Part shown: piece after piece, positions 6,338 through 45,987 of the stretch | How positions within the stretch are numbered: position 1 is the stretch's first letter | Layout of the letters: each line of letters begins with the position of its first letter | IMG/VR virus record: IMGVR_UViG_3300041407_000094 | Coordinates: 17,123 to 81,122 of that record | Direction: 5' to 3' (one strand) | Source of the DNA: a virus | DNA: 64,000 bases | Notes under the pieces: model-generated | Database searches by the model: none | What the model saw: only the letters and a program-made list of their open reading frames with translations | Told to the model about the DNA's origin: nothing | Program-made: the position numbers and the translations under genes

Positions 6338-6724
6338 ATGATAATTGAATATGCTAGAATACTCTCACCTCCAATGTGCAGGCGATATCCAGAGAAGATA
6401 TACATCTATGGTGATAACTTAAAAGCCTTCGGTAAAGGAGGGCAAGCTATCATCCGTGATGAGCCTAATGCTTTGGGTATCCCAACTAAACGATACCCTT
6501 CTTGGGATGATTGGGCATTCTTTAGTGATAAACCAGATGAAATTGAAGCTGTAAAGATATCCCTACGTGAATTGTGGAAGGTTGCACAAGACAAAGTGAT
6601 TGTATTCCCTGAAGATGGTATTGGAACAGGAAGGGCTAAGATGAAAGAGAAATCTCCTGTTGCTTATGAGATGATGTGTGGTATATTGTGGGAACATTTT
6701 GGTATTGTTAATGGAGGAAAATAA
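6338..6724 (+). CDS. conserved phage hypothetical protein
   Basis: YGDN...GKGGQA.IR.EPNA.GIPTK and FP.DGIGTGRA motifs, recalled from many phages; starts immediately after the phaZ stop. Confidence 0.75.
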   Translation: MIIEYARILSPPMCRRYPEKIYIYGDNLKAFGKGGQAIIRDEPNALGIPTKRYPSWDDWAFFSDKPDEIEAVKISLRELWKVAQDKVIVFPEDGIGTGRAKMKEKSPVAYEMMCGILWEHFGIVNGGK

Positions 6725-6991
6725 TGACAAACCCTGAACGCTGTTCATGTGGAGCTAGGGAGAAGAATAAGTGCAGTGAGGAGAGTGAACATGGAACTGG
6801 GAAGATGTGTTTGAAGGATGAAGATAAGGTCATAGTGAAGAAAGGTAGGATTAGGATTAAACAAGGTTGGGGAATCTATATACTGTCGAATGTCGGCTTA
6901 GTTGGTGGCTGCCCTTTTGGTGGTACATGGGGTATACCAGCTATTTTGATGTTGCACAGAACCATATAAAGTGGATTGAGGAGAATATACT

Positions 6992-7300
6992 GTGAACCAA
7001 ACAATTGAAGACAGGATGCAAGCTGTAGAAGATCAACTGAAAGAAATTCGTAAAGAATTGGAGGAGAGTTTGGCGAGGTATAAGGATAAAGAAGACCCTC
7101 TTGCAAACTACAATCTGCACACAGCAAACCCTAACCTCCCTGTGTGGGATGCATCTACTTACTATAGGGAAGGCTGTCTTGTAAAATGGCCTGATGGTGG
7201 TATAATGAAAGCTAAGATTAATACCATATCAAATATTGAAGATTGGTATGACCCTGCAAAATGTGATATACATGGAAACATGGTTGAGAAGATCAAATGA
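6992..7300 (+). CDS. hypothetical protein with possible CBM5/12-like motif
   Basis: N-terminal coiled coil followed by PVWDASTYYREGCLV.W.DG...KA. Confidence 0.5.
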   Translation: MNQTIEDRMQAVEDQLKEIRKELEESLARYKDKEDPLANYNLHTANPNLPVWDASTYYREGCLVKWPDGGIMKAKINTISNIEDWYDPAKCDIHGNMVEKIK

Positions 7301-8041
7301 AACCTAACGGCTGCAATGAAGATGGTTGGGACTTATTCGAACAGCAGACTAAAGAAGAGTTTGAACATTATGCTGTTCGTAGGGGATATGATATAACACG
7401 AGACAGTGAATACAGCTTCTTCTATGCTGATAAGCGTACAGCGGATGCTTGGGAGATGTATCATCAGGGTCATGTTAGCGGGAGGGTGTGGAATGATTGA
7501 ACATTACACAAAAGAGGGTGGACATTTCAAAGTAGGGTTGTCTGCCAATAGCAACCACATACTCTTGCAGATTCAGAATAAGTATGGAGATCAAGCAAGA
7601 GAAGCACTCACTAGTACAGAGGCTGAACATGTTGCTTTGCTATTACTGGACTACGTAAAGGAATTAAAGAATGAAACCAATAATCCTTAAAACACCAGAA
7701 GGGCTATATGTCTGTGAAATACCAATTGAGAATGAACCAGAAGATGGGGCATCTGATAGAACGTGGTGGATATGGGCAGCAACAGGAGTTGGTAGTAGTC
7801 CAGTAGAGGCTTATGATAGGTGGGTACTTGACTATGAGTCACAATTGGAGGATAAGGTGTGATGAACAAAGACACAATTATGGATTTCATCGAATGGCTT
7901 GAAGATGAAAAGAATGTTTATCTTGTAGATATGTACTACCACAATAAAGAGGGTACAGGGATGTTTGATTCACTGGATGAAGTGAGAAGTCTGGTGGATG
8001 AGTTTGCAAAGTTGCCGTCTGTCGGATACATAGACACAGCC

Positions 8042-8070
8042 TTGTAAACGCAGATTTAAGCTGATATAAT
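8042..8070 (+). promoter_or_regulatory. sigma70-type promoter (extended -10)
   Basis: TTGTAA-17-TATAAT with TGn before the -10. Confidence 0.7.
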
Positions 8071-8132
8071 CATTTCATAGCATCAAAGCTATACGGACAA
8101 TCTTGTCCTGAATATTATTTGGAGATTTAAAT

Positions 8133-8642
8133 ATGACAACTTACCACGTAGAACTTACAGGCCATTGCGATGTGATTGTAGAGGCTAATAGTGAGCAAGA
8201 GGCATTTGATCGTGCTGTAGCTCGCATTCCTTCGTCTTCCTTGAGTATCGAGACAGCAGAAGTGAAGGGTGTGTTGGAAGGTGAAGCTTTGAAACAGGCT
8301 TATCGTTATTTTCCTGAGCATTTGGCTATGGTGGATACAGAAGTGTTTGAGAAGGAAGAGAATTTTGTATTGTACACCAAGGAAATGCAAGATGCTGATG
8401 CGCTTGATGCTGACAAGATTTATAAAGAGCTTTCTGCACGTAAATCCGCTGGTGAAACTCTTGATTGGATTGATGAAGAGTTCCTTGAGCAACATTCTTA
8501 CATCAACGGTTTGGTAGAAGAACTTATTCCAAAGCAAGAGAGTTACAAAGATAAGATGATGGCTTGTTTTGATGAGGATGATAATTTTGTTGGCTTGGTT
8601 GGTCAACAAGAGAATGGTACTTATAAGATTTTGAAGAAATGA
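8133..8642 (+). CDS. acidic hypothetical protein
   Basis: 169-aa ORF with GGAG RBS downstream of a promoter. Confidence 0.75.
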   Translation: MTTYHVELTGHCDVIVEANSEQEAFDRAVARIPSSSLSIETAEVKGVLEGEALKQAYRYFPEHLAMVDTEVFEKEENFVLYTKEMQDADALDADKIYKELSARKSAGETLDWIDEEFLEQHSYINGLVEELIPKQESYKDKMMACFDEDDNFVGLVGQQENGTYKILKK

Positions 8643-9104
8643 AACAGTCTCGTGAACAAGCAAAGCAACGATATGCTGAACGTTCAGTGGATGAGCAGAT
8701 ATCTGATGCTATCAACAGTATGGAGAGTATTTACGAGACAATGGTAAATCAACCTGAGTGGTTGAATAACCCAAGTGAAGAATATATTGAAGGATTTAAG
8801 TTTGCCATGAATATGATGAATAGTCGATTCTTTCCAGAGGATGTAATTAAATGACTGTAAGTGAATATGAAGATTTCAAACCCACCGTAGAAGATTTGAT
8901 GTTGGCTCAGAGAGTAATTATGGCATCTCACAAGCAACTTATGAGGGAGTGGTCAGATGGTGATCTTGGGCAAAACCAAGACCCTGAAATCTTCCGACTA
9001 AAAGAGTCTTTGCTTGTTGCCCATGCCACACTTATGTTGTTTTAATTTATAATATCCTCACATTTCTTAATTGATTTGTGGGGTGCTTTTATTTTGGAGG
9101 GGTT

Positions 9105-9710
9105 ATGGCATATAGGATTATACAAGGTGTAGGCATTAATGATGCCGGCTATGTAGTTAATAAGACGGACAGTCTAGGTAGGAGGGTTAGGTGTCCATTC
9201 TATGTTAAGTGGGCAGCGATGCTAGAACGATGCTACTCTGAGTCTTTTCATAAAACCAATCCAAGCTACGTAGGGTGTTCTGTGCATCCCAACTGGCACA
9301 GGTTCAGTAACTTCAAAGCTTGGATGGAACAGCAAGATTGGGAAGGGAAACACTTGGACAAAGATCTACTAATTATTAACAATAGAATATATTCCCCTGA
9401 AACTTGCGTTTTTGTTAGTGGTGCGGTTAATAACTTTACTCTTGATGGTGGCAACCAGAAAAGTGGACTACCGATGGGAGTATCACTAGACAAGAGCTAT
9501 GTTCCGTTGATGTACAAGGCACAGTGCAGGAGTGTTATAAGTGGGAAGAATGAGACTGTGGGCCGTTCACCAAACCCAGATATTGCACACAAAGCATGGT
9601 TAGCAGCTAAGCTAGAACAAGCTTACATCCTTGCAGAACAACAAACAGATAAGCGTGTAGCTGAAGCTTTGATTGATAGGTATGAAAATTATAAGGAGTA
9701 TTTTGGTTGA
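9105..9710 (+). CDS. HNH-family homing endonuclease (paralog of 1606-2238)
   Basis: GVGIND, LDKDLL, YSPETCVFV and a near-identical C-terminus; ATG at 9105 follows GGAGG. Confidence 0.85.
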   Translation: MAYRIIQGVGINDAGYVVNKTDSLGRRVRCPFYVKWAAMLERCYSESFHKTNPSYVGCSVHPNWHRFSNFKAWMEQQDWEGKHLDKDLLIINNRIYSPETCVFVSGAVNNFTLDGGNQKSGLPMGVSLDKSYVPLMYKAQCRSVISGKNETVGRSPNPDIAHKAWLAAKLEQAYILAEQQTDKRVAEALIDRYENYKEYFG

Positions 9711-10945
9711 CAGACATACAAATCGTAGATGCAATATGTGGTGCAGGTAAAACAACTTGGGTGTTTGATCATATGCGCAGGCATCCAGATAAGAAGTGGA
9801 TATTTGTAAGTCCATATCTAGACGAAGCTGGTGATGGTGAACACAAAGGTCGTATTCAAGAAGAGCTTCCTGAGTTTGGATTTAGATCACCATCTAGCAC
9901 ACCAAGTAAAACAAAAGACTTCTTACGCCTTGCACAGAAAGGAAAGAACATTGCTATTACCCACAAACTGTTCACAGGCTTTAGTCCTGAAGTGGCATTG
10001 GTTTTGAAGGAACAGAAATACCATCTTGTGATTGATGAAACTATAGACCTTGTTTCATTCTATGAAGACATCAGCCACGAGGATGTTAAGTTTCTTATTC
10101 TTGCCGGAATGGTTAAGTGTGGTGATAAAGGACTCCTTACATGGAATAATGAGCTATGGCCTAATTATACAGGTAGGGATATTAGAATCAAAGAACTCTG
10201 CGAACTAGGTTGTCTGTGGCTTTACGGAGAGAATGTATTGATTCAACGTATCCCACCAACTTGTATGAAAGCTTGTGAATCTGTTATCATCCTTACCTAT
10301 TTGTTTGAAGCCAGTCTTATGCACTGCTGGATGCAGCTCAATGAAATGGACTGGAGATACTTACAACCACAAGAGATGAGGTTAACATCAGACATAAAGA
10401 AGATAATCAGAAACAAGATACATCTGATTGAACCTCCTAAACTTGTAAAGGACTTGCAACGTACTGAATACGGAGCACCAATACTCAATCCATTCAATGT
10501 CACTTGGTACAAGGATAATGAACCAATACTAGAAAGAGTTAAGAAGAGTATTGAAAGCACACTGAAAGATGATATGGATAAGGGTAATGTCTTCTGGACA
10601 ACCTTTAAAGAATGGGAGTCAGACCTTGCAGGTGTAGGTTATAAGAGATCTAGGAAAGTAGAAGGTAAACTTAGAAAACCCTTTGTACCTAAGAATATGA
10701 GAGCTTCTAACGAATACAGAGATTGTACTAACTGTATTTACACAATCAATATCTATCCTCATGGTAGTTTAGAAAGCCACTTGAGGGCATTTGGTATTGT
10801 GCTAGATAGAGATCTGTATGCATTGTCTGAAGTCGTTCAGTTTATCTTTAGGGGCAGTATTAGGGAACATAAAGACATGTACCTCTATATCTTATCGGAT
10901 AGAATGAGGACTTTAGTGAGTAATTGGTTACAAGAGGATTACTAA
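9707..10945 (+). CDS. SF2-like (DEAD-related) helicase, possible origin-binding protein
   Basis: Walker A DAICGAGKT, Walker B LVIDE, late motif QFIFRGSIR. Confidence 0.7.
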   Translation: MTDIQIVDAICGAGKTTWVFDHMRRHPDKKWIFVSPYLDEAGDGEHKGRIQEELPEFGFRSPSSTPSKTKDFLRLAQKGKNIAITHKLFTGFSPEVALVLKEQKYHLVIDETIDLVSFYEDISHEDVKFLILAGMVKCGDKGLLTWNNELWPNYTGRDIRIKELCELGCLWLYGENVLIQRIPPTCMKACESVIILTYLFEASLMHCWMQLNEMDWRYLQPQEMRLTSDIKKIIRNKIHLIEPPKLVKDLQRTEYGAPILNPFNVTWYKDNEPILERVKKSIESTLKDDMDKGNVFWTTFKEWESDLAGVGYKRSRKVEGKLRKPFVPKNMRASNEYRDCTNCIYTINIYPHGSLESHLRAFGIVLDRDLYALSEVVQFIFRGSIREHKDMYLYILSDRMRTLVSNWLQEDY

Positions 10946-11647
10946 TCTCATATCTAGTATTGGTGTTTACTCTAATTGGAATACGTTCGAGATGGAGTAA
11001 AATATCTACACCCCTTGTAAACAAAGGCTTTCACAGCAAAACCCCTTATAGATTTTATATTAACAAAATATAGGTTGGTAACTTAATATCACCAACTCCC
11101 CTCTGGAATAGGACTAGCTTTCAACTAGTAGTCCTAATTTTCTGTATCTTAAATATGTGTAAGATCCTTATAAGCCTTTGAAATTACTAGATATTTAGAC
11201 TAGGTGTTTAGCAAGGGTAACACACCCCGTTTTAACATGCAAGAGGAATTTAAAATATTGGAGACTTCGCCGACGAACGGTCTACCTAGACTGCATGCAC
11301 CTATCGTACCAACTAAACTACCACCTGTCGCCTAAACTAAATGTCTTGACAGGAGCACTGACCTATGGATGTAACAGCTTAGCTTGCTATGGGAACGTGT
11401 AACATGGATTATGTTCAAGTAATACTATAACACTACTGACCAGTCACCCTGAACAGACTACATATGTCAACCATAATAATCTCCTCTGCACAACTAGCAC
11501 ACTTCACTAGCTTAAGTCAATGTATTGTGATGTTTGTGAGCAAGGATTGGCTAAGAGATGGGTGGAATGGAATCGTTACAGGGGGAAGCAGCGACAAGAG
11601 CGTCTGTGCTTAACTACCAAAGGTAGTCTCGCATACTTACAGATGAC

Positions 11648-19719: not shown

Positions 19720-20876
19720 TTGTTTCTCTCCTAAAACATTAATTTAAATTATCAAAACACCAGCTCTTTAAAACATCCCAGTGATTGCATGCCACTGTTC
19801 TTCTACAAACCGAATCCCTTTGCAATATTCATAGTTATAAGGTCCGTTCAACCATTTCTCCATATGTTGCTCAAGGGCTGTCACACTGAGATTACAAGCG
19901 TAGTCACAATCAGAAAGAGCCTCTTGATAACAATCTGATTCTGTCGATTCATTTAAGGCAGTTTGCAAGCGTTCTTTTAGTTGTTGAAGAGGGTTCATTA
20001 TCAATCCAAGCACCATCACACAGTTCGTTGTTGCCAGTTTTTATATCAAAGTCTTTAACTTTATATTCAGCACCATACGTGAACCCACACGATGTTGGTG
20101 TGCCAAGTAACCTAACTTTCATAAATTTCTCCTCTGGATATCTAAATTCCTATTTCAAGCTATTTCTCAACTGTGCTAATTCCTCCCGCAATCTGTCCAC
20201 CACTTCCACATTATTACTAGCAATGCAGTCAGATATTACCCCTCTAGTTCGTCTATTGAATCTAGTATCTGCGCCTCAATATCTATATCAAACTCAGGTT
20301 CATTTAGGTGGGTTGTAGGCTGAGATTTCAAGCCCTCTAGTCGCATGAGTTGTGTGAAAGTATCTACGGACATAAGACCATATCTGACCATCTTATTTCT
20401 CCTCAATTTCTATCTGATTAATTATGTGAGATAAGCTCTACTTCTCACCACCCAAACAATACCCCAATTTCCCTCACAAAACAACCCTTTCATGCGGCTT
20501 TTTGTATGTTTAAGCCACGTTAGGGATTAGTTGATACAAGGGCAAGCCAAAGCAATAATCCCTGTTTAATTCCACTCCAAAACACTATTCTTCAGTGTCT
20601 GCATCAACTCTTTATAATCCATCTCTCCCGGCTCTTGAAATTTCTTCAAAGATTCTTCCAGCCACAAAGCTTCCACACCATCACATTCTATAAAATCCAC
20701 AAGAGGAGTGTCTAGAATGTAGGCGTGTCCTTCATTTGTGTAAATTGTCTGCCCTGTAAGCCTACACACAAAATCTTCATTAGCTTCGATAATGGCTTCG
20801 ATAATGTAACACCCATTATGCTCTGATAGGAGTTTACTTTGGAGAATGACCTTTTCGCCTATGCTAAAGAGGTGGT

Positions 20877-21062
20877 TCATGATTTATCCTCTTTAGTGAG
20901 CACACGCTGGCTGACATTGCCCGCAACATACGCACTAATGATAACCATTGTCAGTGACTGAAACACATCTGGTGGGAGCGTACCACTCCATAAACACACG
21001 AAGAACAGGAGCTGTGTAATGGATATGAGAAGAAACTTACGAGATAGAAATTTATCAGACAT
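20877..21062 (-). CDS. small two-TM membrane protein, holin-like
   Basis: LSRKFLL, two hydrophobic helices, AYVAGNV and a charged tail. Confidence 0.5.
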   Translation of the reverse strand: MSDKFLSRKFLLISITQLLFFVCLWSGTLPPDVFQSLTMVIISAYVAGNVSQRVLTKEDKS

Positions 21063-23445
21063 TCTCTTCGTCCTCATCAGTTAGAATTTTACCATGTTTA
21101 TACAATTCAGCACAGACATTCTGGTGAATACGAATAGTCCCTTGAATACCAGACTCCATATGCAAGATGCTCCCACGCTTTCTCTCGGAAGAATCCCACT
21201 CCCAAACGATTGTTTCAGCATAGCGACCTCCGTACATGGAGGAGCTTTCTCTATCGATTGTAGACACATAAAATGCCTTATCTTCTTTTGTTTCGTTTGA
21301 ATAAAACACATAGGTTTGGATAAGGGTTTTGTTTGGTCCACGTTCTTCTGAATAACTCATGCTCCATCCTCGCAAAATAATGTATCTTCCACATAATCCC
21401 TACAAGCCAAGGCATAATTATACCGGGCCTGTTTAAGCTCCTCCTTCGCCAGAATGTACTCTAAAGATCCGTCTAGAGAAGTCTTAGCTGTCTTATAGCT
21501 TTGTTCAGCTAACGTTAGGATTTTACGAAGCTCTGTTAGTTCGTTCATTTCACCAATCCCTTCGCAAACATCATTGCATCACTCACATTTCCAAATGTCT
21601 TAGCAATGTTGTTAAAGATTACAGTCCAAACATTATCTTTGTTTTTGAATGGGAGGATTCCCAATCCGTTAATGGTCATTAGTTCTGCTGAATTACTCAT
21701 TTAGTTTCTCCTAGGATCGTGCCTATCATTCGTCGAGAACATTATGCACAGAATTATAAAAGGATAAAAGAGGAGGCAAAATACTAGGAACATTATCCAT
21801 TACCCCTCATAGCCAAATCGATTGCATTATTAATATCTTCTTCACTGGACTCTGTGCTCCCCATACTTGCAAAGAAGTCACGGGATTCTTCACTCAAACT
21901 GTCCCACTCAATAGCGCACTGAGACAGGAGGAAGGTCCACCGTTCGTGATTCAGAATCTGTTCAGCGGATGGACGCTTTGCTACTGTCACGCGCTTAGTT
22001 TTAACCGACATTACCTTTCTCCCTTACCAGTCAATATCAATTGTATAGTTACCAGCTTCAATCAAGCCTTTTGTATGTAGGTCATTTGCAATCATTTGAA
22101 CATCTGGATAGAAGTTACGTTCCCACCAAAGACCAAGACTCCAACTACCATTCTCATTTGGAATTGATTTCTTTGGATCACGCTCAAGCCAAGCTTTGAA
22201 ACTAACTCCCATATCTTCATGGTTAACGACTTCTGGAACTGTGTCATTCTCATAGTCATAAGCTTCTTGAGGAATTGTAATCTGAACACGTTGACGTTCT
22301 TTACAACCATCTTGTTGCTGGAAACTGTAAGGCTTACCATAAGTGTCAATTACTAGTTGATCCCAATCACCAACATCAATGACTTGTTCTGTTCGTGTAC
22401 TGATCTTCATAACCATCTCTCCTCTCTATCCTACATAACATATCTATTTCATTTATTTCAGCGCTTTTAACGCCATGTCTTGTGTGTTGATTATGGTAGG
22501 TTTTGGTGGATGTGTCAAGTATAAATTATCCAGCTATCATACTCTTCTGACCAATGAGAGAACTCCTCCATCTCTGTAAACTCTCGTGAACCGGGGAGAT
22601 AAATCACATCGTGATCAGCAGCTAGCCATTCATCACCAAAACCACGATCATCAAGAAATTGCAAGGCTTGAAGCAAACTTTTCACTGTACTCATTCTGTT
22701 TTCTCTTTGTTGTTGATGAAAAAGATACATGCATTCACATCTTTGACACTCACTTCCATACACAACCACGGTTGATAACGAGGAGCTGTCTCTACCAGAT
22801 ACCGATAGCAAAGCTCCTTTCGTGGGCAGTTTGTGCCAACGCATTTACTATAGGTTGACACTAGACATACTCCACTTTTTCTGTCATCACTTGAGTAACT
22901 TTACGTGTCAAGCCTTCCTTCTCAACACTGATGTCAAACAAACCTTCACCAGAGCTGTGATAAGCTTTCACTTGTGCGTAAGTACCATTATCATTTGCAA
23001 TATAGAACTGAATGATCTTTGAATAACTCTTTTCTAACAAAGTTTCCTTGTTCAACAGCTCGTCAGGCTCATAGTTGTGCAGGATACACCAATCTTCAAA
23101 TTCTGAACGGTAGTTAAATCGCATTAGTTTTTCTTCTCCCAAGATATACAATGATTATAACCATCATGATGTCTTACATATTTACAAGATAGATAATTCA
23201 TTCGCCCTCCTACATCATTTGTGTATTTAGGGTGCGAGCAACGCCATTCAAGGAGTGTCATATACCGCAATTGTAGAGGGAAGCATTTGTATTTGCAATC
23301 TGTGCAGGTTTTCATTTATTAATCCTTAGTAAATTTACCCTTACCCAGTAGCCAAGCTTGAAGGCTGTACGGTAGTCAGTATGTATTTTTGTAATAACTT
23401 CCCAGTCAGTTTTCTTGCATTTCACACCGCAAAGAAAGGCATAGA

Positions 23446-24895: not shown

Positions 24896-25291
24896 TCATT
24901 TCATCTCTCCCAAACGTTCATTAATACGCTGACGATTAATTTCAATAGCTTCTTGTGTAGGGATGTAGTCTCCAAACCACCAGCTATTGATCCCTTCAAT
25001 CAAACTGTCTTTCTCAATAGGATTTACTTTATATCCACGACTGACAGCTTCATTGCACAGAGAATAATACCGCTTGGTGATGAAGTCAAGCTTATCGTAA
25101 AAATGAAGCACATGGCCTGTACCCATTGTGTAAGCTGATGGTTGTTTGATCTTTTCTTTGAAATTGTATTTGTTAATTTTTCTATCTTGTGCCTTACGGA
25201 CAAGACCAAAGACACGCGTTATCTCGTGGATTTCAGCGACCAAGTGTTTCGGGTGCAGTTCAGATGGGGCGATAACATTGATTCGTGTCAT
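24896..25291 (-). CDS. denV: pyrimidine-dimer DNA glycosylase / endonuclease V
   Basis: MTRINV..PSEL...HL.AE..EI.RVFG.VRK, MGTGHV..FYDKL, GDYIPT.EAI..N..RI matches T4 DenV, including Thr2 and Glu23 equivalents. Confidence 0.93.
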   Translation of the reverse strand: MTRINVIAPSELHPKHLVAEIHEITRVFGLVRKAQDRKINKYNFKEKIKQPSAYTMGTGHVLHFYDKLDFITKRYYSLCNEAVSRGYKVNPIEKDSLIEGINSWWFGDYIPTQEAIEINRQRINERLGEMK

Positions 25292-25323
25292 GAGAGTCTT
25301 CTGTGAGAAGGGCTGATGTGAGA

Positions 25324-25359
25324 ACAATACAGACAAAAGAAAAGGCCGTCAAGCGGCCT
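25324..25359 (-). terminator. terminator hairpin with -35 box over its loop, promoter for denV
   Basis: AGGCCG-CTTGA-CGGCCT-TTTCTTTT; TTGACG-17-TATTGT. Confidence 0.65.
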
Positions 25360-25915
25360 GTGAGGTTTATTTGTGTTTATCTGCTTCAGCCATTAATTCC
25401 TTAGCAGTCTTCGCAATACGTTCTTTCCAAACCTTCTCAGCCTCTTGCCAAGTATTCCTGTTGTAATTGCAAGGACCAACAAGATTGGCTGCTACAAGCA
25501 TGTATTGGTCAAATCTTGACATTTCATTACCCATCATTCTTACTCGTATTTAGATTTATCACAAGACAATATCATTTCAGCTTGTCCTTTCCAGTTGAAA
25601 TTAAGTTGCTCTTGCATATCTTTGTAAGAAAATCCTAGACGTTTCATAGCATGAAGTGCTTCCTTACGAGCTTCAAGGAAATCCCCCCACCATTTGTATG
25701 ATTCGTCAAATTGTTTTAGTTCTTGTGTGTTCATACCACTAGCTCCAATTCATGTTCCATGAAAGGCCATTGTGCATAAAGATCTTCATCACTGCCGACG
25801 TAAAATGGATCTATGATGTAGATTAGATCTTCATTAATAGAACTGATTGTGTGTTCAGAACCTACAGTAAAAGCTGTGTATACAGCCTCAACTATTTTAA
25901 CTTTATCACCAGTTT

Positions 25916-27292
25916 TCATTTTTGATCCACCTTTACAAATTCTTTGGAGCCGATAACATCATTCCATGCTTCGACCATTGCTGAATGTAACAATTCACCT
26001 GCACTTGCTCGGCACTGAAAACTGTCATGCCAACACAGAACAACTTCACCAGACTGTAGCATCAAATCAATCACTCGTAAAGCAATTTCGCTATCAAGAT
26101 TTTGTAACCAAATACCCTTATCTTGAAAGAAATCCTTAGAAATCAAATGGTTGTGTGCACAAACTACCATTAACACCTGTTTAGTATCAGGTTTAATCAG
26201 CCCAACATACTCACGATCTGCTATGTTTTTCTTACCGTCGGTGAACAATTCATGGGATAGACTAGACCATGCACGATCAAAACTATCACAATTCAACGCC
26301 CTCATAACAGCATGTTTCATAAAGGATCGCGCGGGATTATATTTCTTAATACCAAACCGAAGTTTGTGTTCTTCCACTGCTACATGGTCCACACGAAGGC
26401 ATGATTCATCAGCACCATACGGGTCTACATCTTTTGAAACCAAATCAAGAATTTGAGGCTCTTTTTGAGACAAAATTTCTAGAAGAATTCTTGGGTGGTT
26501 TGCTGAATAGTCCCACTCCTGAACAGATTCACCCTCAATTGTGATGGCAGACAAGCGTAATTCTTGAGGAACAAGCTGAATACTTCCTCCGTGTGCAAAC
26601 AACCGACCACCACTATTGAAGTCACCACTGAAACTACGATGGTATTCTAGCAAAGGGACCTCTTTACCATTAAATCGGATGTCAACACTTGACAAACTCT
26701 CATTGTAACGAGCCATTTCCTGAGCCATCTTGTCAATCATGCCTGTTTTCTCTACTTCGATCATCTCTTTTGTCTTCCTATCTTTCAAAATAATAGGGTA
26801 ATCCATAGCAACGCTAGGGACGTGTAATTCTAATTGTTTCTTGTCAAACAAGTCAACCAGTTTTTGATTGAATCGGACAACACTCATATAAGAAAAGTCT
26901 TCATTTCGATAGTCATGACTGCCTTTGAGAACATAAATGTATTCATTTTCGCTCATATAACCAAGAACAGAATTAATTCCACGAGCACTAATACCACAAT
27001 CGTTACCTGTCCAGTAGGCAGATTGTAGCTTTACAGAGAAACCCATGTAGTTGTCTCTTAACGATCTTGCTGTATTAGTGAAGAACCATTGTACTGCTTC
27101 AAACTTCTTGTACTTTAATTCTTTGTTCACTTGATCAACAAGATGGTTATATGCTTTGTTTGGTGATCTGTAAGGCTTACCTTTAGCTGTAGTGATGAGA
27201 ACAGAATATAACTCTCTACCAACTAAATCTCTTACCTTATATACTACATCTTTCTTCTCTTTCTCATCTATTATATTACTAATCTCACTCAT
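25916..27292 (-). CDS. superfamily A / T7-RNAP-like polymerase-fold protein (TV-Pol-like)
   Basis: Ordered motifs SGGRLF, EWDYSANHPRIL (A), RSFMKHAVM (B), LQNLDSEI, LCWHDSF (C); 458 aa. Confidence 0.7.
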   Translation of the reverse strand: MSEISNIIDEKEKKDVVYKVRDLVGRELYSVLITTAKGKPYRSPNKAYNHLVDQVNKELKYKKFEAVQWFFTNTARSLRDNYMGFSVKLQSAYWTGNDCGISARGINSVLGYMSENEYIYVLKGSHDYRNEDFSYMSVVRFNQKLVDLFDKKQLELHVPSVAMDYPIILKDRKTKEMIEVEKTGMIDKMAQEMARYNESLSSVDIRFNGKEVPLLEYHRSFSGDFNSGGRLFAHGGSIQLVPQELRLSAITIEGESVQEWDYSANHPRILLEILSQKEPQILDLVSKDVDPYGADESCLRVDHVAVEEHKLRFGIKKYNPARSFMKHAVMRALNCDSFDRAWSSLSHELFTDGKKNIADREYVGLIKPDTKQVLMVVCAHNHLISKDFFQDKGIWLQNLDSEIALRVIDLMLQSGEVVLCWHDSFQCRASAGELLHSAMVEAWNDVIGSKEFVKVDQK

Positions 27293-27882: not shown

Positions 27883-28598
27883 ATTATTGCCCCTTAAGCC
27901 CATAACGGCGTTTGAGTGTAGAGGACGCTAGTCCGTATCCCCTCACCAGTTTCTTTCTGGAGTAGACGTACATCTTCTACTGTGATTTGTTTCACTGTAA
28001 GTCCTCCCAAATCTTTTTAAGATGTTTCTTCTTGATATCAGGGAATGCTTCAACAATATCCTCAAAGAAAATTCTATGGAAAGACTTGAAGTACTTGTCA
28101 GCCATCCATTGTTCAATCTCTTCAACCAAGGCATCAAATTTCTCTTGTTTCATTTCACTCTCCGAACATTAGCCCAGTGTTCAACACCAAATTGATCACG
28201 TTTAAACTCTCCAGACACCTCACCTTCAAAGGTTACATCAAGCTTCATGTTTGTGCGAACATTCTTCTTATATACTGACTGGAAGGTTGTACCTGTGGTT
28301 TCGTAGTCCGATACCCAAGGACTGGACTCTTCTGTGATTTCAGAGGCACTGATAGGAAACACTTCAAAATCTTCTGGCAAGCTCTCAATCCAACTGATAA
28401 ATTCTTTCTTGTTCATCACTCTTCTCCCTTCCACACTACATCAAACCTCGGCTTACCCTCTAACGAGGGCTTACACACATCAGCTAGCTTCCTGACATAC
28501 GTATCATAATCCATAAAATTCCCTACGAGGAAGAATATTCCCTGATCATTCATGACAAGCATCTCCTTCTCACGTAGCTTAAGCTTCTGTCCCGTAGA

Positions 28599-29256
28599 TG
28601 TGTCGATTATTTTGAATTTCTTTTTCATTTGTTATTGTCCAAGTGGTATGGAATTTTAAAGTCGCTCAGGTGGATACGTTCAACAGTGCCGTCTTCAAAT
28701 ATGACATCAACCTTAGACCATTCATCACAAGGCTCGTTGTAATCCATTTTACGCCGTTGTACTTTGACAGGAACACCACCATACAAACCAACATCAGTTA
28801 GAAGCTCACTGTGATAACGTACAGTATAACTGCCCCATATTCATCATCAAGAGCTGCAATTGTAGGATAAAACTTCTCATCTTCTTTTACCAAGCTTAGG
28901 ATAAAATCCCTTACTTTCAAGGCTGCTTCTTCAGACACAAATCGAATGTAGACATCACTTTTACGTGCGGATTGGGTAGAGACAGCAATAGGCTCATCAT
29001 CCATAAAATACACATTCATACCAACATGGGTATCTGTACACAACCACTGTGTAAGGGCATAACCTTTTACATGTTCATCGAAACGTTCGTCCCAACCCAA
29101 CCACTCATTAATATTCAGAGCTTGACAGAAAGCATCAATATCAGCACTGTCTTCGTTCTTCTCGGAACGGTCTACCTTGGCAATCAGTTCACGTAGCTTC
29201 ATTTTTATATCTCCGCATTGGTTGCTGTGTCGATTATTTTGAATTTCTTTTTCATT
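28599..29256. repeat. 31-bp exact direct repeat flanking one gene
   Basis: TGTGTCGATTATTTTGAATTTCTTTTTCATT at 28599-28629 and 29226-29256. Confidence 0.9.
28625..29202 (-). pseudogene. frameshifted paralog of gene 30091-30678
   Basis: N-terminal ~125 aa align with 30091-30678 (WLCTDT.VG, QSARK); homology continues in the -1 frame after the G4 run (28833-28836) to a TGA at 28625. Confidence 0.75.
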
Positions 29257-29832: not shown

Positions 29833-29861
29833 ATCTTAACCTCATCACCAACCCCTGTCAA
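29833..29861 (-). promoter_or_regulatory. leftward sigma70 promoter heading the early region
   Basis: TTGACA-17-TAAGAT. Confidence 0.75.
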
Positions 29862-29896
29862 CCCTTCCTTCGAAAAATCTTCTGACAGAGTGTAGA

Positions 29897-29961
29897 TAAA
29901 TCTACCAAACAAATTTGCTGGGTAAATCTACTGAATAAATTTACCAAATGGGTTTACCAAA
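29897..29961. repeat. five tandem degenerate 13-bp repeats
   Basis: TAAATCTACCAAA / CAAATTTGCTGGG / TAAATCTACTGAA / TAAATTTACCAAA / TGGGTTTACCAAA. Confidence 0.75.
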
Positions 29962-30029
29962 GGAGGGTTTCCCTGAATTGAGAGCTTAGAGAATATTTTT
30001 AAATCAGTGCGTAATTTTACAAATTACCC

Positions 30030-30057
30030 TTGACAGGTGTGTAGGAACATGTAAACT
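30030..30057 (+). promoter_or_regulatory. rightward sigma70 promoter
   Basis: TTGACA-16-TAAACT, preceded by the GTAATTT/AAATTAC inverted repeat. Confidence 0.65.
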
Positions 30058-30090
30058 GAGGCCAATCGAAAACCCTGAAGGAGCATAATC

Positions 30091-30678
30091 ATGAAACTTA
30101 AAGAAGCCATTCGGCTGGTGAATAAAGACAAGAGTAACACAACTGATGCCGACATTAACGACTTTGCCCGCGCAGTGAATGCTGACATCTATATTGGCTG
30201 GAGTGACAAATGGAATGAGCGTGTCAAAGGTTACTGGCTTGTTCGTTGGCTGTGCACAGACACTTGGGTAGGTCGTCGGGTGTATTTCTTTGATGGCGAG
30301 CCTGTTGCTACCAGCTATCAGAGTGCCCGTAAAAATGATGAATATATTGAATTTGTCAGTAATGAAGCTGCCGAGAAAATTCGTTCATTTATTTTTGAGC
30401 TTTATGGTCAAGAAGAAAAACCAGCATATGACATTGTCAATGTTGAAGAGGACATTGAAGATTTCTATCATTTCGACCTAACTGATTACTTTCTTGAGGA
30501 TGAAGGTTTTGTGGATGGTAAGCCTGTTAAGATCATTCAGCGTCGCTGGTTCGATGATACGGAAGACAAGCGCTGGGTTTGCTACCACGCTAAAGTGAAA
30601 TTTGAGGGTGGAGAAGAACGTGTTGTAAAGGCAGAAGAAATTCATTTTCCACTTCGTATTAGCAAAGATTTCTCTTGA
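30091..30678 (+). CDS. conserved phage hypothetical protein
   Basis: 195 aa, AAGGAG RBS, WLCTDTWVG motif; intact paralog of 28625-29202. Confidence 0.8.
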   Translation: MKLKEAIRLVNKDKSNTTDADINDFARAVNADIYIGWSDKWNERVKGYWLVRWLCTDTWVGRRVYFFDGEPVATSYQSARKNDEYIEFVSNEAAEKIRSFIFELYGQEEKPAYDIVNVEEDIEDFYHFDLTDYFLEDEGFVDGKPVKIIQRRWFDDTEDKRWVCYHAKVKFEGGEERVVKAEEIHFPLRISKDFS

Positions 30679-31469: not shown

Positions 31470-33329
31470 TTGAGTAATATCCGAGAGGTCATATCTCATT
31501 ATCTTGATATCTCTGGAGATAAGTGTTGCTGCCCTTTTCACAAGGAACGCACACCATCTCTGAATATCTTTGACGATACCAATTCATTTTATTGTTTTGG
31601 CTGTGGTCAGAGTGGGGATGAGATTGAGTTTGTGAAGGACTACAAAGGTTTGACATTTCCCAACGCTGTTAAGGAAGTGTGTTCAATTCTGAAATTAACC
31701 AAAGAGGAGCTTATGGAAAGTAAAGATAAAGAAAAGGTTGCTGAGAAAGTAGCTATTGAGAATGCTGAAGTTATGGATGTTGAAGAAGTTAAATCTCTCA
31801 TTCAATCCACAGGATATGTGAGTCATGGGTATCGCGGTATCCGAGATGACATTAACAAATTCTTTGGGCATTTGAGTAAACTGGATAGTCAAGGTAAAGT
31901 CCTTGCACGCTACTACCCAGAAACCAATAACAACGGTAAGTTGACAGGTTATAAATGCAGAAACACACCAAAGGACTTTAGTCACGGAAACCAAGGAATT
32001 ACTGGCAGTAAGAGTCAACTTAGTGGTCAGGTGAAATTCAAATCCCCCGCTAAATATGTTCTCTATGTTGGTGGCGAGGAGGATAAAGCAGCAGCTTTTC
32101 AGATGCTCAAGGATAATCGTAAGGATCAGGAGTTCGATTCTATTCCTGTAGTAAGCTCAACGGTTGGTGAGTTGACAGCAGCCAAACAAGCTGCCCAACA
32201 ATATGACTGGTTTGACATGTACGATATCATCGTAATTGGCATGGATAACGATGAAGCTGGTCGTGCTGCTGCAAAGAAGATTGCAGACGTTCTACCAAAA
32301 GAGAAAGTACGAATTGCTACATGGTCCGGCAAAGATCCAAATCAGATGTTGATTGATGGTAAAGAGAAACAATTTGTTCGTGATTTCTACAATGCAAAAG
32401 AATTCATTAGTAGTGGTATTTCCTCTTCTGGTGACGCTGAAGCTGGTTTGGCTGAGTTCCTGACAGCTCCAAAGATTGGTCTACCACCTCAACTGAGCAA
32501 GCTTGAGGCTGCAATGCGTGGTGGTATCAAATCTACTGGCTCCGTTGTGAACATTATTGGTGACACAAGTATTGGTAAGAGCTTTCTGTCTGACACTCTG
32601 ATCTATCATTGGTTGTTCAACAGTCCTCGTGTACCAACAATTGTCAGTCTTGAGCGAACTAAGGAAGAGTTGACAATTGATTTGCTGTCAATGCATCTTA
32701 AGAAAAACCTGATGTGGTTCACAGATGGTCACGATGCTGTGGATTATCTGAATCAACCTGAAGTACAAGTATTGAAGAATAATCTTCTTTACAACGAAGC
32801 TGGTGAGCCTCGATTCTTTATTATTGATGAGCGGGAAGGGGAGATTGAACTTCTCAAGCGTCAGATGGAGAAAAGTGGTAAAGTCAATGATTCACGACTG
32901 ATGGTGATTGACCCACTCACTGACTTCTTGCGATCATTAGGGACAGAGGTTCAAGAAAACTTTATGATGTGGCAGAAGTTGCAAAAGAAGAATGGTTTTG
33001 TATTCATCAACATTCTTCACACCCGCAAGCCACCAACTGATAAAGATGGCAATGTTCGCAAGGTTACGGAATATGACGCACTTGGTTCTGGGACATTTAT
33101 CCAGTCAGCAGACGTGAATATTGTGATCAATCGTGATAAGATGGCTTCAGATCCGATTGAGAAGAATACGACCTATGTTGACATGCCTAAGTGTCGTGGG
33201 GGTATCACTGGTGAGATTTGTGCGCTATACTATGACGCTGAAACTCGTCAGCAGTATGATCGTGATGAGTATTTTGACCGTAAAGTAGAAGATCCACCGC
33301 AACATCATGCGGATGAGATTGATTTTTAA
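31470..33329 (+). CDS. DNA primase-helicase
   Basis: CHC2 zinc finger (CPFH.ERTPS...CFGC), TOPRIM (GGEED, MDNDEAG, KDPN), DnaB-like helicase (GDTSIGKS, VIDP, LHTRK, GSG...QSAD, KCRGG.TG). Confidence 0.93.
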   Translation: MSNIREVISHYLDISGDKCCCPFHKERTPSLNIFDDTNSFYCFGCGQSGDEIEFVKDYKGLTFPNAVKEVCSILKLTKEELMESKDKEKVAEKVAIENAEVMDVEEVKSLIQSTGYVSHGYRGIRDDINKFFGHLSKLDSQGKVLARYYPETNNNGKLTGYKCRNTPKDFSHGNQGITGSKSQLSGQVKFKSPAKYVLYVGGEEDKAAAFQMLKDNRKDQEFDSIPVVSSTVGELTAAKQAAQQYDWFDMYDIIVIGMDNDEAGRAAAKKIADVLPKEKVRIATWSGKDPNQMLIDGKEKQFVRDFYNAKEFISSGISSSGDAEAGLAEFLTAPKIGLPPQLSKLEAAMRGGIKSTGSVVNIIGDTSIGKSFLSDTLIYHWLFNSPRVPTIVSLERTKEELTIDLLSMHLKKNLMWFTDGHDAVDYLNQPEVQVLKNNLLYNEAGEPRFFIIDEREGEIELLKRQMEKSGKVNDSRLMVIDPLTDFLRSLGTEVQENFMMWQKLQKKNGFVFINILHTRKPPTDKDGNVRKVTEYDALGSGTFIQSADVNIVINRDKMASDPIEKNTTYVDMPKCRGGITGEICALYYDAETRQQYDRDEYFDRKVEDPPQHHADEIDF

Positions 33330-33339
33330 GGAGAAGGTT

Positions 33340-35562
33340 TTGGATAAGAAGTGGTATGAATCAGACTTTATTTACGATTTGGAGTCGTACCCGAATGTTT
33401 TCTCTATGAGCATCATCCATGCTTCTGGTAAACACATGCGAGTTTTTGAGATTAGTGATCGTAAGAATGAAATTGAAGGGATTGCTAAATGCTTGCGATA
33501 TCTGGTTCAGAATAAATGTCGTATGGTGGGATTTAACAATAACTCATACGACTACACTCTTATCCATGAAATCATTAAATCTCTGAAGGAAGCAAAGCAA
33601 ACTGGTAAAGCTCCAAATATTACAGCTCAGAAGCTTTACAAACTCACAACTCAAATCATTACAAAAATGCAGTCTGAAGATAAGTGGTACGGCATTAAAG
33701 AAGCTGACCACTTTATTCAACAGGTTGATTTGTATAAAATTCACCATATGGATAACATGGCGAAAGCTACATCTTTGAAGATGTTGGAAGTGAACATGCG
33801 ATCTACCAACGTGGAGGATTTACCCTTTCCTGTTGGTAAGAAGCTGACAAGTGATGAAATTGATATCTTATTGCATTATAACAAACACGATGTTAATGAA
33901 ACTCTGAAGTTCTATTACTACTCTTATGAGGCGATTGAGCTTCGTAAGGAGTTGTCTGAGAAGTTTGGATTTGACTGCACAAGTTTTAGTGATAGTAAGA
34001 TTGGTGAAACCTTGTTTATCAACCGTCTAGAACAAGCTCAGAAGGGTTTGTGCTATGAGTACAGTAAACATGGTGGCCGTAAGATCAATCAGACCAAGCG
34101 TGACAATGTAAAGATTAAAGATTGTCTTTTTGACTATCTGAAATTTGATCGTCCTGAGTTTAGGGCTGTACATGATTGGTTGAGTAATCAGACAGTGCAA
34201 GAAACTAAGGGTGTCTTCAATGATTATGAAGAACATCAGATCGGTGATCTTGCTAAGTATGCTCAGATGAAAACCAAAAAGGTGTTGTTCAAGAATAGGT
34301 TGAATCTCGATAATAAAGATAAACCTAAAGCTGACTTTGATTTTACTGATCTAGATCACTTGGAAGAACTTCAACGTCTGAAAGATGAATTCTTGAAAGA
34401 ACATCCTATGGGATATTTTGAAGAGAAGGAAACTAAAACGTCACGCTCTCATAAGCTTAAGGTAACTGCTTTCTATCGAGTGGTTGAGGCAATTAACACT
34501 GTAATTGATGATAAGGTGTACGTGTACGGTACTGGCGGTATTCACATGTCTATTGAAAGTGAGACTGTGAGAGCAGATGACGAATGGACAATTATAGACG
34601 CCGACGTCACCAGTATGTACCCGTCGATTTCCATTGCCAACAACGTGTATCCTGAACATCTCGGTATTACATTCTGTAAAGTGTACAAGGATCTATTTAT
34701 GGAGCGTGGTAGATATCCAAAAGGTAGTGGTCCAAATGGTGCAATTAAGCTAGCATTGAACTCTGTGTACGGTAAGTCCAACAGTGAGTTTAGTCCGCTT
34801 TATGACCCTAAATATACCTTAACTATCACCATTAACGGTCAACTGTGCCTGTCTATGCTGGCTGAAAAACTGATTGATCTTGGTTGTAAGATGATTCAAT
34901 GTAATACTGACGGTGTGACAGCTTTGGTTCCACGCAGTAAGGAAGCTGATTATTATGCAATCACAAAAGAATGGGAAAAAACTGTTGGACTTCGGTTGGA
35001 GTATGCTGTATATTCAATGATGGCTTTGGGAAACGTTAACAACTACATCGCCGTTTATGAAGATGGGAAGGTGAAGAGTAAAGGTCAGTATGAAGTTGCT
35101 CACTTTGAAAAGCTTGGATGGTCTAAAAACCATTCTGCGATGATCGTGCCAAAGGCTGCACTTGACTACATTGTTTATGGTAAAGATATTGAAGAGACTA
35201 TTCGTTCTCACAAGGATGAATTTGATTTTCTTTTGAGGGCGAAAGTACCACGTAGCTCAAAGCTTTATCTTTGTTATGAGGACGGTCGTGAGGTTCAGCA
35301 ACAGAACATCTGCCGCTACTATCCATCTGAACAAGGTGGTAAATTGGTCAAGCTGATGCCAGCCTTGATTGATGGTGGTGAATGGCGTAGACTTGGATTG
35401 GACACTGAATGGACGGTTGAGACGTGCAACAACATTGCAGAGTTTGACTGGAATAAACTTAACTATGATTATTACATCAAGGAGGCTCAAAAGCTGATTG
35501 ATGGTGTGGGGATGAAAGAAATTGAAAATAATGCTTTACAGGGCCATGAAAACGTGGAATAA
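33340..35562 (+). CDS. family B DNA polymerase with 3'-5' exonuclease
   Basis: Exo motifs YDLE, GFNN..YD, YNKHDV; pol motifs DADVTSMYPS, KLALNSVYGK, NTDG; likely TTG start at 33340 after AAGGAG. Confidence 0.93.
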   Translation: MDKKWYESDFIYDLESYPNVFSMSIIHASGKHMRVFEISDRKNEIEGIAKCLRYLVQNKCRMVGFNNNSYDYTLIHEIIKSLKEAKQTGKAPNITAQKLYKLTTQIITKMQSEDKWYGIKEADHFIQQVDLYKIHHMDNMAKATSLKMLEVNMRSTNVEDLPFPVGKKLTSDEIDILLHYNKHDVNETLKFYYYSYEAIELRKELSEKFGFDCTSFSDSKIGETLFINRLEQAQKGLCYEYSKHGGRKINQTKRDNVKIKDCLFDYLKFDRPEFRAVHDWLSNQTVQETKGVFNDYEEHQIGDLAKYAQMKTKKVLFKNRLNLDNKDKPKADFDFTDLDHLEELQRLKDEFLKEHPMGYFEEKETKTSRSHKLKVTAFYRVVEAINTVIDDKVYVYGTGGIHMSIESETVRADDEWTIIDADVTSMYPSISIANNVYPEHLGITFCKVYKDLFMERGRYPKGSGPNGAIKLALNSVYGKSNSEFSPLYDPKYTLTITINGQLCLSMLAEKLIDLGCKMIQCNTDGVTALVPRSKEADYYAITKEWEKTVGLRLEYAVYSMMALGNVNNYIAVYEDGKVKSKGQYEVAHFEKLGWSKNHSAMIVPKAALDYIVYGKDIEETIRSHKDEFDFLLRAKVPRSSKLYLCYEDGREVQQQNICRYYPSEQGGKLVKLMPALIDGGEWRRLGLDTEWTVETCNNIAEFDWNKLNYDYYIKEAQKLIDGVGMKEIENNALQGHENVE

Positions 35563-35580: not shown

Positions 35581-36336
35581 TTGTGGACTCATATGAAGAA
35601 AGTAATCAAACCGTTAGACGAGGGTTCAATATACGAGACGATATACGGAGAGGGTTTCAAGGTTGTTTGGTATATAGGCAGGGATAAGATACTGATTGAA
35701 TTCCTAGACGAAACAGCACACCTGCACTGGACATCAAAGTGCCAGATACTTAGAGGAGACTTTAGGAATCCTTATAGAAAAACAGTCTATGGTAGAGGAT
35801 TCCTAGGTTTTGGTAAGTACAAAACTAAAGAGGGTAGGAAAGATACCTTAGAATATAAAACTTGGGCCGGTATATTTCGCAGATGTTATGAGCAGGACGA
35901 TTGTGGTAATAATCTAGAGCCAACTTATCAAGGGTGTGAAGTTGATGAAAGATGGTATAATTTCCAAAACTTTGCATCTTGGTTCTGTAGTAGAAAACAA
36001 TATGGAATGGGGTGGCACTTGGATAAGGATATTACTGTTTCGGGTAACAAGGTATATGGTCCAGATACTTGTACAATGTTACCTGTACAACTTAATGCCT
36101 TGATTGTTGGGGAAAGATTAAAGTCTAGAGAGTTACCTGTAGGAGTATACAAGGATCGTTATGGATATAAGGCGGGAACTGGTAAAGTATATGCCGGATT
36201 TTATAGAAATGTAGAAGAAGCACACCAAGCGTATAAAGTTAGAAAAGGAGAGTACATAAGGGAGGTTGCTGAAGGTTTTAAAGAATTTCTTGATGCAGAA
36301 ACGTTTGACAAACTAATGAACTTTGAAGTTAAATAA
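35581..36336 (+). CDS. HNH-family homing endonuclease
   Basis: NPY..TVYGRGFLG, WYNFQNFA.W, LDKDI...GNKVYGPDTC..LP..LN; free-standing after the polymerase gene. Confidence 0.85.
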   Translation: MWTHMKKVIKPLDEGSIYETIYGEGFKVVWYIGRDKILIEFLDETAHLHWTSKCQILRGDFRNPYRKTVYGRGFLGFGKYKTKEGRKDTLEYKTWAGIFRRCYEQDDCGNNLEPTYQGCEVDERWYNFQNFASWFCSRKQYGMGWHLDKDITVSGNKVYGPDTCTMLPVQLNALIVGERLKSRELPVGVYKDRYGYKAGTGKVYAGFYRNVEEAHQAYKVRKGEYIREVAEGFKEFLDAETFDKLMNFEVK

Positions 36337-45324: not shown

Positions 45325-45987
45325 GTGGGAAAGAAACTAGTTTATGGAGTAGGTATAAATGACTTAGGTTACCCTATAACTAAGACAGAACAAGGTATTC
45401 GTGTATGGGAGTGTCCTTATTATAACAAGTGGATTGAGATGTTGAGGCGTGGATTCTCTGAAGCTGAGAAAGCAAGGCATTCAACTTATAAAAATACAAC
45501 CGTCTGTGATGAGTGGAGAACAGCAAGTGTGTTTAAAGCTTGGATGGAGCAACAAGACTGGAAAGGGTTGGACTTGGATAAGGATATACTTTTAAAAGGT
45601 AATAATATTTATAGTCCAGAAACAACAGTATTTGTTCCATCCTATATCAACACCTTACTTGTAACGAGCAGCGCTATTAGAGGTAAGTGGCCTTTAGGAG
45701 TATCTTTTGTAAAACAGAATTTCTTAAAAGGTGTGAGTAAAGTATTTAGGGCATCTATTAAAGATAAGAGAAACCTTGAATGTATACAGAAGAATCTGGG
45801 ACATTTTACAACACAAGATGAAGCTCATAGAACTTGGCAACAAGCTAAATATGAAGTATTCTTGCGGCGTCTAGATGAATACTCAAAAGACCCTCAGTTC
45901 AATCAGAAAGCATATGATGCAATCAAGATTCGTGCAATTAATTTAAAACTAGACATAGCTCTAGGAAAAGAAACTTTTAATATCTAA
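45325..45987 (+). CDS. HNH-family homing endonuclease
   Basis: VYGVGIND, FKAWMEQQDW, LDKDILLKGNNIYSPET.VFVP..IN; free-standing before the RNR gene. Confidence 0.85.
   Translation: MGKKLVYGVGINDLGYPITKTEQGIRVWECPYYNKWIEMLRRGFSEAEKARHSTYKNTTVCDEWRTASVFKAWMEQQDWKGLDLDKDILLKGNNIYSPETTVFVPSYINTLLVTSSAIRGKWPLGVSFVKQNFLKGVSKVFRASIKDKRNLECIQKNLGHFTTQDEAHRTWQQAKYEVFLRRLDEYSKDPQFNQKAYDAIKIRAINLKLDIALGKETFNI

Follow-up and report, generated by a model that had tools for sequence, protein, structure and literature searches.

The virus record IMGVR_UViG_3300041407_000094 encodes, at positions 25916-27292 (minus strand) of the window, a protein of 458 amino acids (aa) that was shown, on the level of conserved motifs and predicted fold, to be a minimal family-A polymerase core of the Pol I/T7 RNA polymerase (RNAP) fold. 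The core consists of palm and fingers with intact catalytic residues and an apparently reduced thumb region, it lacks an exonuclease, and it is preceded by a winged-helix-like head domain. The window is the whole stretch of 64,000 nucleotides that was analyzed, i.e., bases 17123-81122 of the 81,122-bp record, the completeness of which was rated 92%. The gene is a divPolA2, found in the phage type in which divPolA2 was defined, as judged from profile matches. The biological function is tentatively read as that of a site-specific, chain-starting polymerase for the initiation of replication. The open reading frame (ORF) list and the translation revealed an uninterrupted reading frame with an ATG start and 458 codons plus stop, and its features are the following:

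25916-27292, minus strand: divPolA2-type gene, copy 2 of 2 in the phage (ORF list; phrog_4756, E 1.7e-73; match to the published representative by family profile)
26798-27292, minus strand: N-terminal domain, residues 1-165, alpha+beta, winged-helix-like
25919-26797, minus strand: polymerase core, residues 166-458, comprising palm, fingers and an apparently reduced thumb (fold matches over model residues ~160-458)
26597-26614, minus strand: SGGRLF hairpin motif, residues 227-232, with R230, aligned with TGRLS of Escherichia coli Pol I
26483-26518, minus strand: motif A, EWDYSANHPRIL, residues 259-270, with the catalytic D261 and with H266, which takes the steric-gate position of Pol I
26417-26425, minus strand: DPY motif in the fingers, with D290 and Y292, aligned with D-I-H of Pol I
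26291-26329, minus strand: motif B helix with R322, K326, M330 and N334 (Asn for the Tyr of the YG pair)
26084-26107, minus strand: LQNLDSEI helix motif, residues 396-403, with Q397, D400 and S401
26018-26038, minus strand: motif C, LCWHDSF, residues 419-425, with H422 and the catalytic D423

In a first-pass annotation, made from the sequence letters, five polymerase motifs in canonical order had been noticed, including both metal-binding Asp residues and the RxxxK pair. To quantify their conservation, 228 distinct family members with a length of 300 aa or more (232 with identical ones included) were aligned to the family profile. All five motifs were verified, and because their residues are near-invariant in the 228 members, the motif set is above chance. 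In the hairpin and the palm, R230 and R246 are present in every member, D261 in 227 and H266 in 226. In the fingers, Y292 and K326 are again invariant, R322 is kept in 226 members and D290 in 173. The helix motif and motif C are similarly constrained (Q397 216, D400 223, S401 220, H422 228 and D423 227 of 228). The annotation had named a lack of conservation of the catalytic residues in homologues as an observation that would speak against a polymerase; both catalytic Asp residues turned out to be conserved. It was also right that the YG pair of motif B is missing: the segment RSFMKHAVM comprises residues 322-330, and N334-C335 stand at the place of the Y-G of PolA and T7 RNAP. N334 is kept in 217 of the 228 members, with Tyr in seven and Phe in three of the others. 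The residue eight positions after R322 is aliphatic (Leu in 142, Met in 65 members). With 458 aa, compared with 883 aa for T7 RNAP, the protein has about half the size of the latter, as had been stated.

A word-indexed search yielded 42 relatives, none of which has a functional name, and 24 of them were used to build a family profile, A1. An AlphaFold2 model based on the A1 alignment had a pLDDT of 87.1 and a pTM of 0.81. The structure prediction and the Foldseek comparison, which had been proposed as a check, returned a family-A fold: all 50 matches listed from the PDB were polymerases of the Pol I type, with a best E value of 1.1e-6, and the global TM scores were low (0.27-0.34). R230 lies within a model strand (229-234), and a single helix (184-201) was found between the head domain and the beta-hairpin in the secondary structure of the model. 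Residues 1-165 form a separate alpha+beta domain, the fold of which matches winged-helix proteins and not nucleases. The earlier claim that an exonuclease domain is absent thus holds, and the head domain is probably DNA-binding, as judged from the model. In the wider family the N-terminal parts vary, while the core of ~300 aa is constant. The annotation was therefore right in describing a minimal, exonuclease-less polymerase of the PolA/T7 RNAP superfamily.

Alignments with hhalign to Pol I, T7 RNAP and N4 gp16, each used as a single sequence, gave E values of 0.011-0.26. With E. coli Pol I (E 0.024, weak alone), the series GGRLF, D261, H266 and DPY fell on TGRLS, D705, E710 and DIH, with D261 on D705 and H266 on E710. 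With T7 RNAP (E 0.26, again weak alone) H422-D423 fell on H811-D812, and with N4 gp16 (E 0.011) the HD of motif C fell on the HD of that protein. The columns aligned with the Pol I motif residues presumably touch primer-template and triphosphate. Because these columns are conserved, templated synthesis is likely. As to the choice of the sugar, the sequence is compatible with an RNA product as well as with a DNA product: the steric-gate Glu is replaced by an invariant His, the Tyr of motif B by Asn, and the position eight after R322 is Leu or Met.

Sequence libraries contributed very little. The protein had no Pfam family match at E≤10, DNA_pol_A included, and neither Pfam searches with 10 relatives nor NCBIfam gave a real match. 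Apart from the lack of a match to the curated model, the protein differs from DNA_pol_A by H266 in place of Glu and by N334-C335 in place of Y-G. PDB sequence searches with the protein, with the profile and with its homologue from the cholera phage ICP1, gp102, returned no polymerase match. Both copies of the phage belong to phrog_4756, which is annotated as "unknown function" in PHROGs, and the protein Atlas contributed a single, automatically assigned name, "family A palm domain-containing protein." The only PADLOC match, to DrmE, covered 79 residues of the head domain with E 0.0039 and was dismissed.

The family itself has been described. The name divPolA2 was introduced by Yutin, Tolstoy, Mutz, Wolf, Krupovic, and Koonin (2024, Virol J 21:200; PMC11348598) for exonuclease-less proteins that are present, sometimes as two to three paralogues, in ~80-kb phages with a regular PolB. 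The gene at 25916-27292 is assigned to divPolA2 because the A1 profile matches two reference copies. One match is at 25484-26485 (minus strand) of MG592441 (E 1.9e-21), within the coding sequence (CDS) AUR84708.1, the representative modeled in that paper; the other is gp034 of Rheinheimera phage Barba1A, at 20426-21490 (minus strand; E 9.9e-30). The common traits are an ~81-kb phage, a regular PolB, a second paralogue, the absence of an exonuclease, and an N-terminal globular domain. In addition, fold matches to DNA polymerases as well as to mitochondrial and N4 RNAPs are common to divPolA2 and the window protein. As for a thumb homologous to that of other DNA polymerases, the model contains the one helix (184-201) before the hairpin. 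The PolB of the window phage shares 44% identity with its barbavirus counterpart and 49% with the PolB of Pseudomonas phage vB_PpS_SYP. A single-sequence tblastn search with the window copy had no Rheinheimera phage among the matches listed, the copy being too diverged for the barbaviruses. In the divPolA2 paper, no similarity was found for the N-terminal domain, whereas the head of the window protein looks weakly winged-helix-like; a role at origins or in primer synthesis and a kinship to TV-Pol are not discussed in the sections covered here (PMC11348598). The first-pass annotation had pointed to TV-Pol, a poorly characterized family; this kinship stands, albeit weakly, but the divPolA2 description of 2024, the co-occurrence with PolB, and the paralogues had been missed.

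For the TV-Pols, which typically reside on transposons and integrative elements, a primase-polymerase function was predicted (Iyer, Abhiman, and Aravind, 2008, Biol Direct 3:39; PMC2579912). The window protein resembles them in its minimal family-A core, the Arg of the hairpin (R230, 228 of 228), the two palm Asp residues (D261 and D423), the Asp and the R...K pair of the fingers (D290, R322 and K326, with the counts given above), and the lack of a nuclease. An additional N-terminal domain and relatives linked to integrases occur in a subset of the TV-Pols as well. In contrast, the coiled-coil thumb and the linkage to a D5 helicase that characterize TV-Pols were not seen for the window protein; TV-Pols have a bi-helical thumb, and one helix is seen in the secondary structure of the model. 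Likewise, the TV-PolN domain is predicted to be all-helical, whereas the head of the window protein is alpha+beta. Near both copies of the phage no D5-like helicase, resolvase, integrase, or transposase was found in a scan that omitted some small ORFs.

A direct comparison was made with gp030 of Microcystis phage Ma-LMM01, a hypothetical protein of 506 aa beside two transposase genes, which was taken as the TV-Pol of the 2008 paper because of these neighbors. No match was obtained when Ma-LMM01 was searched with the A1 profile at E≤10. In an unfiltered search within that genome gp030 was the top ORF for both hidden Markov models of the family (E 0.012 and 3.5e-5), and an hhalign comparison of the family with gp030 was weak (E 0.025 over 136 columns). 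The elements D-x4-H, K-x7-N and HD are common to both. The N-terminal parts did not align significantly (E 0.26), and the corresponding alignment with ICP1 gp102 was weak (E 0.016). Taken together, the link to TV-Pol, as seen in these alignments, is weak but consistent.

A third enzyme that can be compared is CcPol-MP of SCCmec elements, for which de novo primer synthesis has been demonstrated (Bebel et al., 2020, PMC7581432; Rice, 2023, PMC10061031). Both are family-A cores on mobile elements, both are plausible chain starters, and both are encoded near a helicase module. The similarity has its limits, however: CcPol is encoded adjacent to, and requires, the OB-fold partner MP, whereas no conserved partner was found for the window gene; and CcPol, compared here by its description, retains some of the exonuclease region of Pol I and has no N-terminal TV-Pol domain (PMC10061031).

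The family is very widespread. Among 1.84 billion proteins, the A1 profile found 8552 cluster representatives with E≤1e-3, 6127 with E≤1e-10, and 1746 with E≤1e-30. In 50,697 phage records tblastn yielded 119 with a match (Vibrio 92, Aeromonas 14, Pseudoalteromonas 6, Shewanella 5, and one each from Pseudomonas and Pseudaeromonas), and all 40 matches listed were annotated as hypothetical or not at all. The second copy of the window phage lies outside the window (G000 10328-11647, minus strand); its identity to the window copy is 22% over 361 residues, and all motifs are present in it. Eight of 11 near-complete phage genomes had two matches and three had one, and one of the eight second matches is a fragment of 185 aa. 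The latter, an open frame in an 86-kb phage (G010 33304-33807, minus strand), matches the head domain only (profile positions 8-181) and is situated 1.6 kb from a full-length copy; it could be a remnant of a gene or a head domain that stands alone. In the genome collection 10 family loci were confirmed, one of which, L006, is evidently a phage contig. Five of the nine bacterial loci have a tyrosine integrase within 6 kb, called with PF00589 on proteins of L007 and L009 and by blastp cluster for L008, L012 and L014. A metagenome-assembled genome of Pseudodesulfovibrio (L013) carries two family copies in tandem (5278-6618, E 4.2e-39, and 6864-8201, E 8.9e-37).

It was confirmed that both a PolB and a primase-helicase are encoded beside the small polymerase, as had been annotated: a DnaG-DnaB primase-helicase at 31470-33329, and a PolB at 33307-35562 (phrog_1252, E 1e-176; archaeal PolB structures down to E 3.3e-7). 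The record also encodes a gp2.5-like single-stranded DNA-binding protein and an exonuclease. The polymerase gene is located 2.6 kb into a leftward operon that starts at a divergent junction (29852-30090) and faces the primase-helicase/PolB module. A primase-helicase cluster within 6 kb of the polymerase gene was found in nine loci (this phage, L006, L019-L022, L024, L025, and L041); the loci examined for the divergent orientation were those of this phage, L021, and L024. In Barba1A gp034 is the second gene of a gene string that further on includes the primase and PolB. The place of the gene is kept in orthologues down to 45% identity, while small neighboring genes are replaced. A search for a conserved partner gene across the loci gave only synteny within phage groups. 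A role apart from bulk replication, as suggested before, is plausible. A proposed link to the SF2 helicase at 9707-10945 was not borne out by co-occurrence: relatives of the helicase (phrog_2467) were found in 56 records, including 24 from Bacillus and 15 from Acinetobacter, whereas the polymerase was found mostly in Vibrio and Aeromonas (92 and 14 of the 119 records mentioned above).

The profile matched the homologue in ICP1 with an E value of 1e-53. In ICP1_2006_E this homologue, ORF100 (ICP12006E_102), spans 58951-60618, and a divergent junction lies 1.3 kb away. At 8 min of infection the read coverage of ICP1 peaks near 60 kb, and this peak was interpreted as the origin of bidirectional theta replication (Barth et al., PMC7145576).

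The reading of a site-specific, chain-starting polymerase for replication initiation is preferred, albeit tentatively, because of this coincidence in ICP1, the prediction of a primase function for the TV-Pols and the primase activity of CcPol-MP. The near-invariant catalytic residues, the family-A fold, the separate head domain, the integrases in five of the nine bacterial loci and the recurring place near the primase-helicase module were also counted in its favor. Precedents exist in the same superfamily, as T7 RNAP and mitochondrial RNAP make primers at their own origins. In the proposed mechanism, the N-terminal domain would dock the enzyme on a specific DNA site, and the core would copy the template for a short distance, probably starting the chain de novo. 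The primer would be passed to the phage replisome, that is, PolB and the DnaG-DnaB helicase-primase, and leading-strand synthesis would start at the origin. The two diverged paralogues would serve two different sites. It is tempting to extend this picture, with even more reserve, to a widespread class of phage initiators: in all divPolA2 proteins the winged-helix head might bind the origin and the thumbless core might prime de novo for the resident replicase (PolB here, PolA in ICP1), each paralogue defining a separate origin. Three functions had been offered in the first-pass annotation, namely an origin-specific primer synthase, a dedicated small RNAP, and a nucleotidyltransferase used in counter-defense. 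Of these, the first has the most circumstantial support.

A candidate for the cognate site was a cluster of a 10-base word, which occurs four times with at most one mismatch and in both orientations within 125 bp (29896-30020). The cluster lies between two divergent pairs of sigma70-like hexamers, 29861-29833 (minus strand) and 30030-30057 (plus strand), and from its sequence it looks like an operator or an iteron array. At the starts of two successive minus-strand genes, a 36-nt direct repeat is present (28594-28629 and 29221-29256, 94% identical). The junction is flanked, on either strand, by two paralogous phrog_4518 genes with unknown function (28798-29202, minus strand, E 3.7e-37; 30091-30678, plus strand, E 6.9e-41).

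Several observations weigh against the chain-starter reading. The 10-base word clusters in neither L019 nor L006, the two closest relatives examined, in which the orthologue is 81% identical, and the link to the repeats at 29.9 kb that had been suggested is not supported. No such arrays were found in the junctions of L019, L021, L024, Barba1A, and ICP1, which were guessed from ORF maps and may be wrong, and a cognate site was not found. The coincidence of gene and origin in ICP1 is resolved only to the level of a coverage plot. The strain used lacked the CRISPR array and cas2-3 (Barth et al., PMC7145576), and because of these deletions positions may be offset by a few kb. In the papers searched, no relevant report joining "ICP1" and "gp102" was found, and the term "divPolA2" was found only in the naming paper and its preprint. 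The phage already encodes a DnaG-type primase. CcPol needs MP, and a conserved small partner is missing here, a downstream ORF of 62 aa being present in three loci only and not always adjacent. Pseudomonas phage phiPMW and Acinetobacter phage BS46 have a similar PolB and no divPolA2 match, so this type of replisome does not require the enzyme. Three of the 11 near-complete genomes have one copy only. Lastly, the gene neighborhood of divPolA2 was described as variable, and repair or transcription was proposed instead (Yutin et al., 2024, PMC11348598).

Transcription, the first of the alternatives, would make the enzyme a small RNAP in the manner of N4 RNAPII, dedicated to a few phage genes, which is one of the options of Yutin et al. 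(2024). The active site is partly in line with this idea: the residue eight positions after R322 is aliphatic and not aromatic, His stands in for the steric-gate Glu of Pol I, and the head domain could read a promoter. T7 RNAP likewise has an aliphatic residue eight positions after the Arg of motif B. Q397, however, probably corresponds to His784 of T7 RNAP and Gln849 of Pol I, and would then have the Pol I identity. Compared with T7 RNAP, mitochondrial RNAP, and N4 RNAPII, the window protein has half the size or less. It has N334 in place of the Tyr of the Y-G motif, and the T7-type N-terminal domain, the specificity loop, and other promoter-recognition parts exceed its ~300-aa core. The genome also lacks a matching promoter set. 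A general transcriptase is disfavored because a word of at least 14 bases with three copies is absent from the 81-kb genome and no 9-mer is present in more than three of 53 upstream regions; a repeated phage-specific promoter word was thus not found. The commonest upstream words were ribosome-binding sites and words containing TTGACA. The use of host sigma70 promoters, which had been assumed before, is no more than plausible; a scan with the sigma70 consensus gave 17 sites compared with 15.6 expected. A dedicated RNAP is regarded as unlikely.

The other published option, a DNA polymerase for short-patch repair or lesion bypass (Yutin et al., 2024), is judged to be still a little less probable. 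The apparent lack of a thumb and the lack of proofreading would suit short distributive synthesis, and a gene for a denV-type pyrimidine-dimer DNA glycosylase (24896-25336, minus strand; PF03013, E 5.5e-13) is present ~0.6 kb downstream on the same strand. The denV neighbor is, however, restricted to this one locus, the bacterial relatives reside in integrase islands, and neither a sequence-reading winged-helix head nor several diverged paralogues per genome would be expected of a repair enzyme. A terminator-like hairpin (25359-25343) was seen just upstream of the denV-type gene.

There is little probability that the gene is the replicase of a resident selfish element or its remnant, as was proposed for the TV-Pol element of Ma-LMM01. 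The typical association of TV-Pols with transposons and integrative elements (PMC2579912), the two transposase genes beside gp030, the copy number of one to two, and the richness of the phage in HNH homing endonucleases would agree with it. However, the ORFs scanned around the two copies, which were not all of the small ones, include no integrase, transposase, or resolvase. In addition, the window copy stays close to the primase-helicase module in orthologues as low as 45% identity, with its small neighbors being replaced. A nucleotidyltransferase for counter-defense or signaling, which would make a decoy or a small nucleic acid, can practically be set aside: its sole support is the location in an early-type region of small genes, DrmE was the only PADLOC match, and the conserved Pol I-aligned columns, if they contact the primer-template as in Pol I, argue for templated synthesis.

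A few further observations concern the remainder of the genome and related phages. A stretch of 107 nt is present three times in the window (1822-1928, 9309-9415, and 45529-45635) with 65-71% identity. Each copy is contained in an ORF of 210-220 aa (1606-2238, 9078-9710, and 45325-45987), which suggests a gene family with three members. Several free-standing HNH endonuclease genes were found, at 35581-36336 (plus strand), directly after PolB, and in L051 (4611-5192 and 15936-16667). Two proteins with a CapR-homology domain (PF21817) are encoded among baseplate and tail genes (55808-56899, minus strand, and 58822-59802, plus strand), one of which also has a treble-clef zinc finger. In phiPMW (L068, 88101-90783) PolB is annotated as two CDSs with two small ORFs between them, which suggests that this PolB gene is interrupted.

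The family was already published from computational analyses in 2008 and 2024, and the window gene adds one member to it. The result for the window is thus modest, and the interesting question belongs to the family as a whole, which is very large (8552 cluster representatives), has no function assigned in Pfam, NCBIfam, or PHROGs, and is present in many large lytic phages, including the cholera phage ICP1, which is tractable in the laboratory. If its members are origin starters, they would explain how origins are chosen in phages with T7-like or PolB replisomes that have no known initiator, and they would be a third kind of phage primase beside DnaG and AEP. If they are instead minimal RNAPs or repair enzymes, they would represent the smallest working family-A core.

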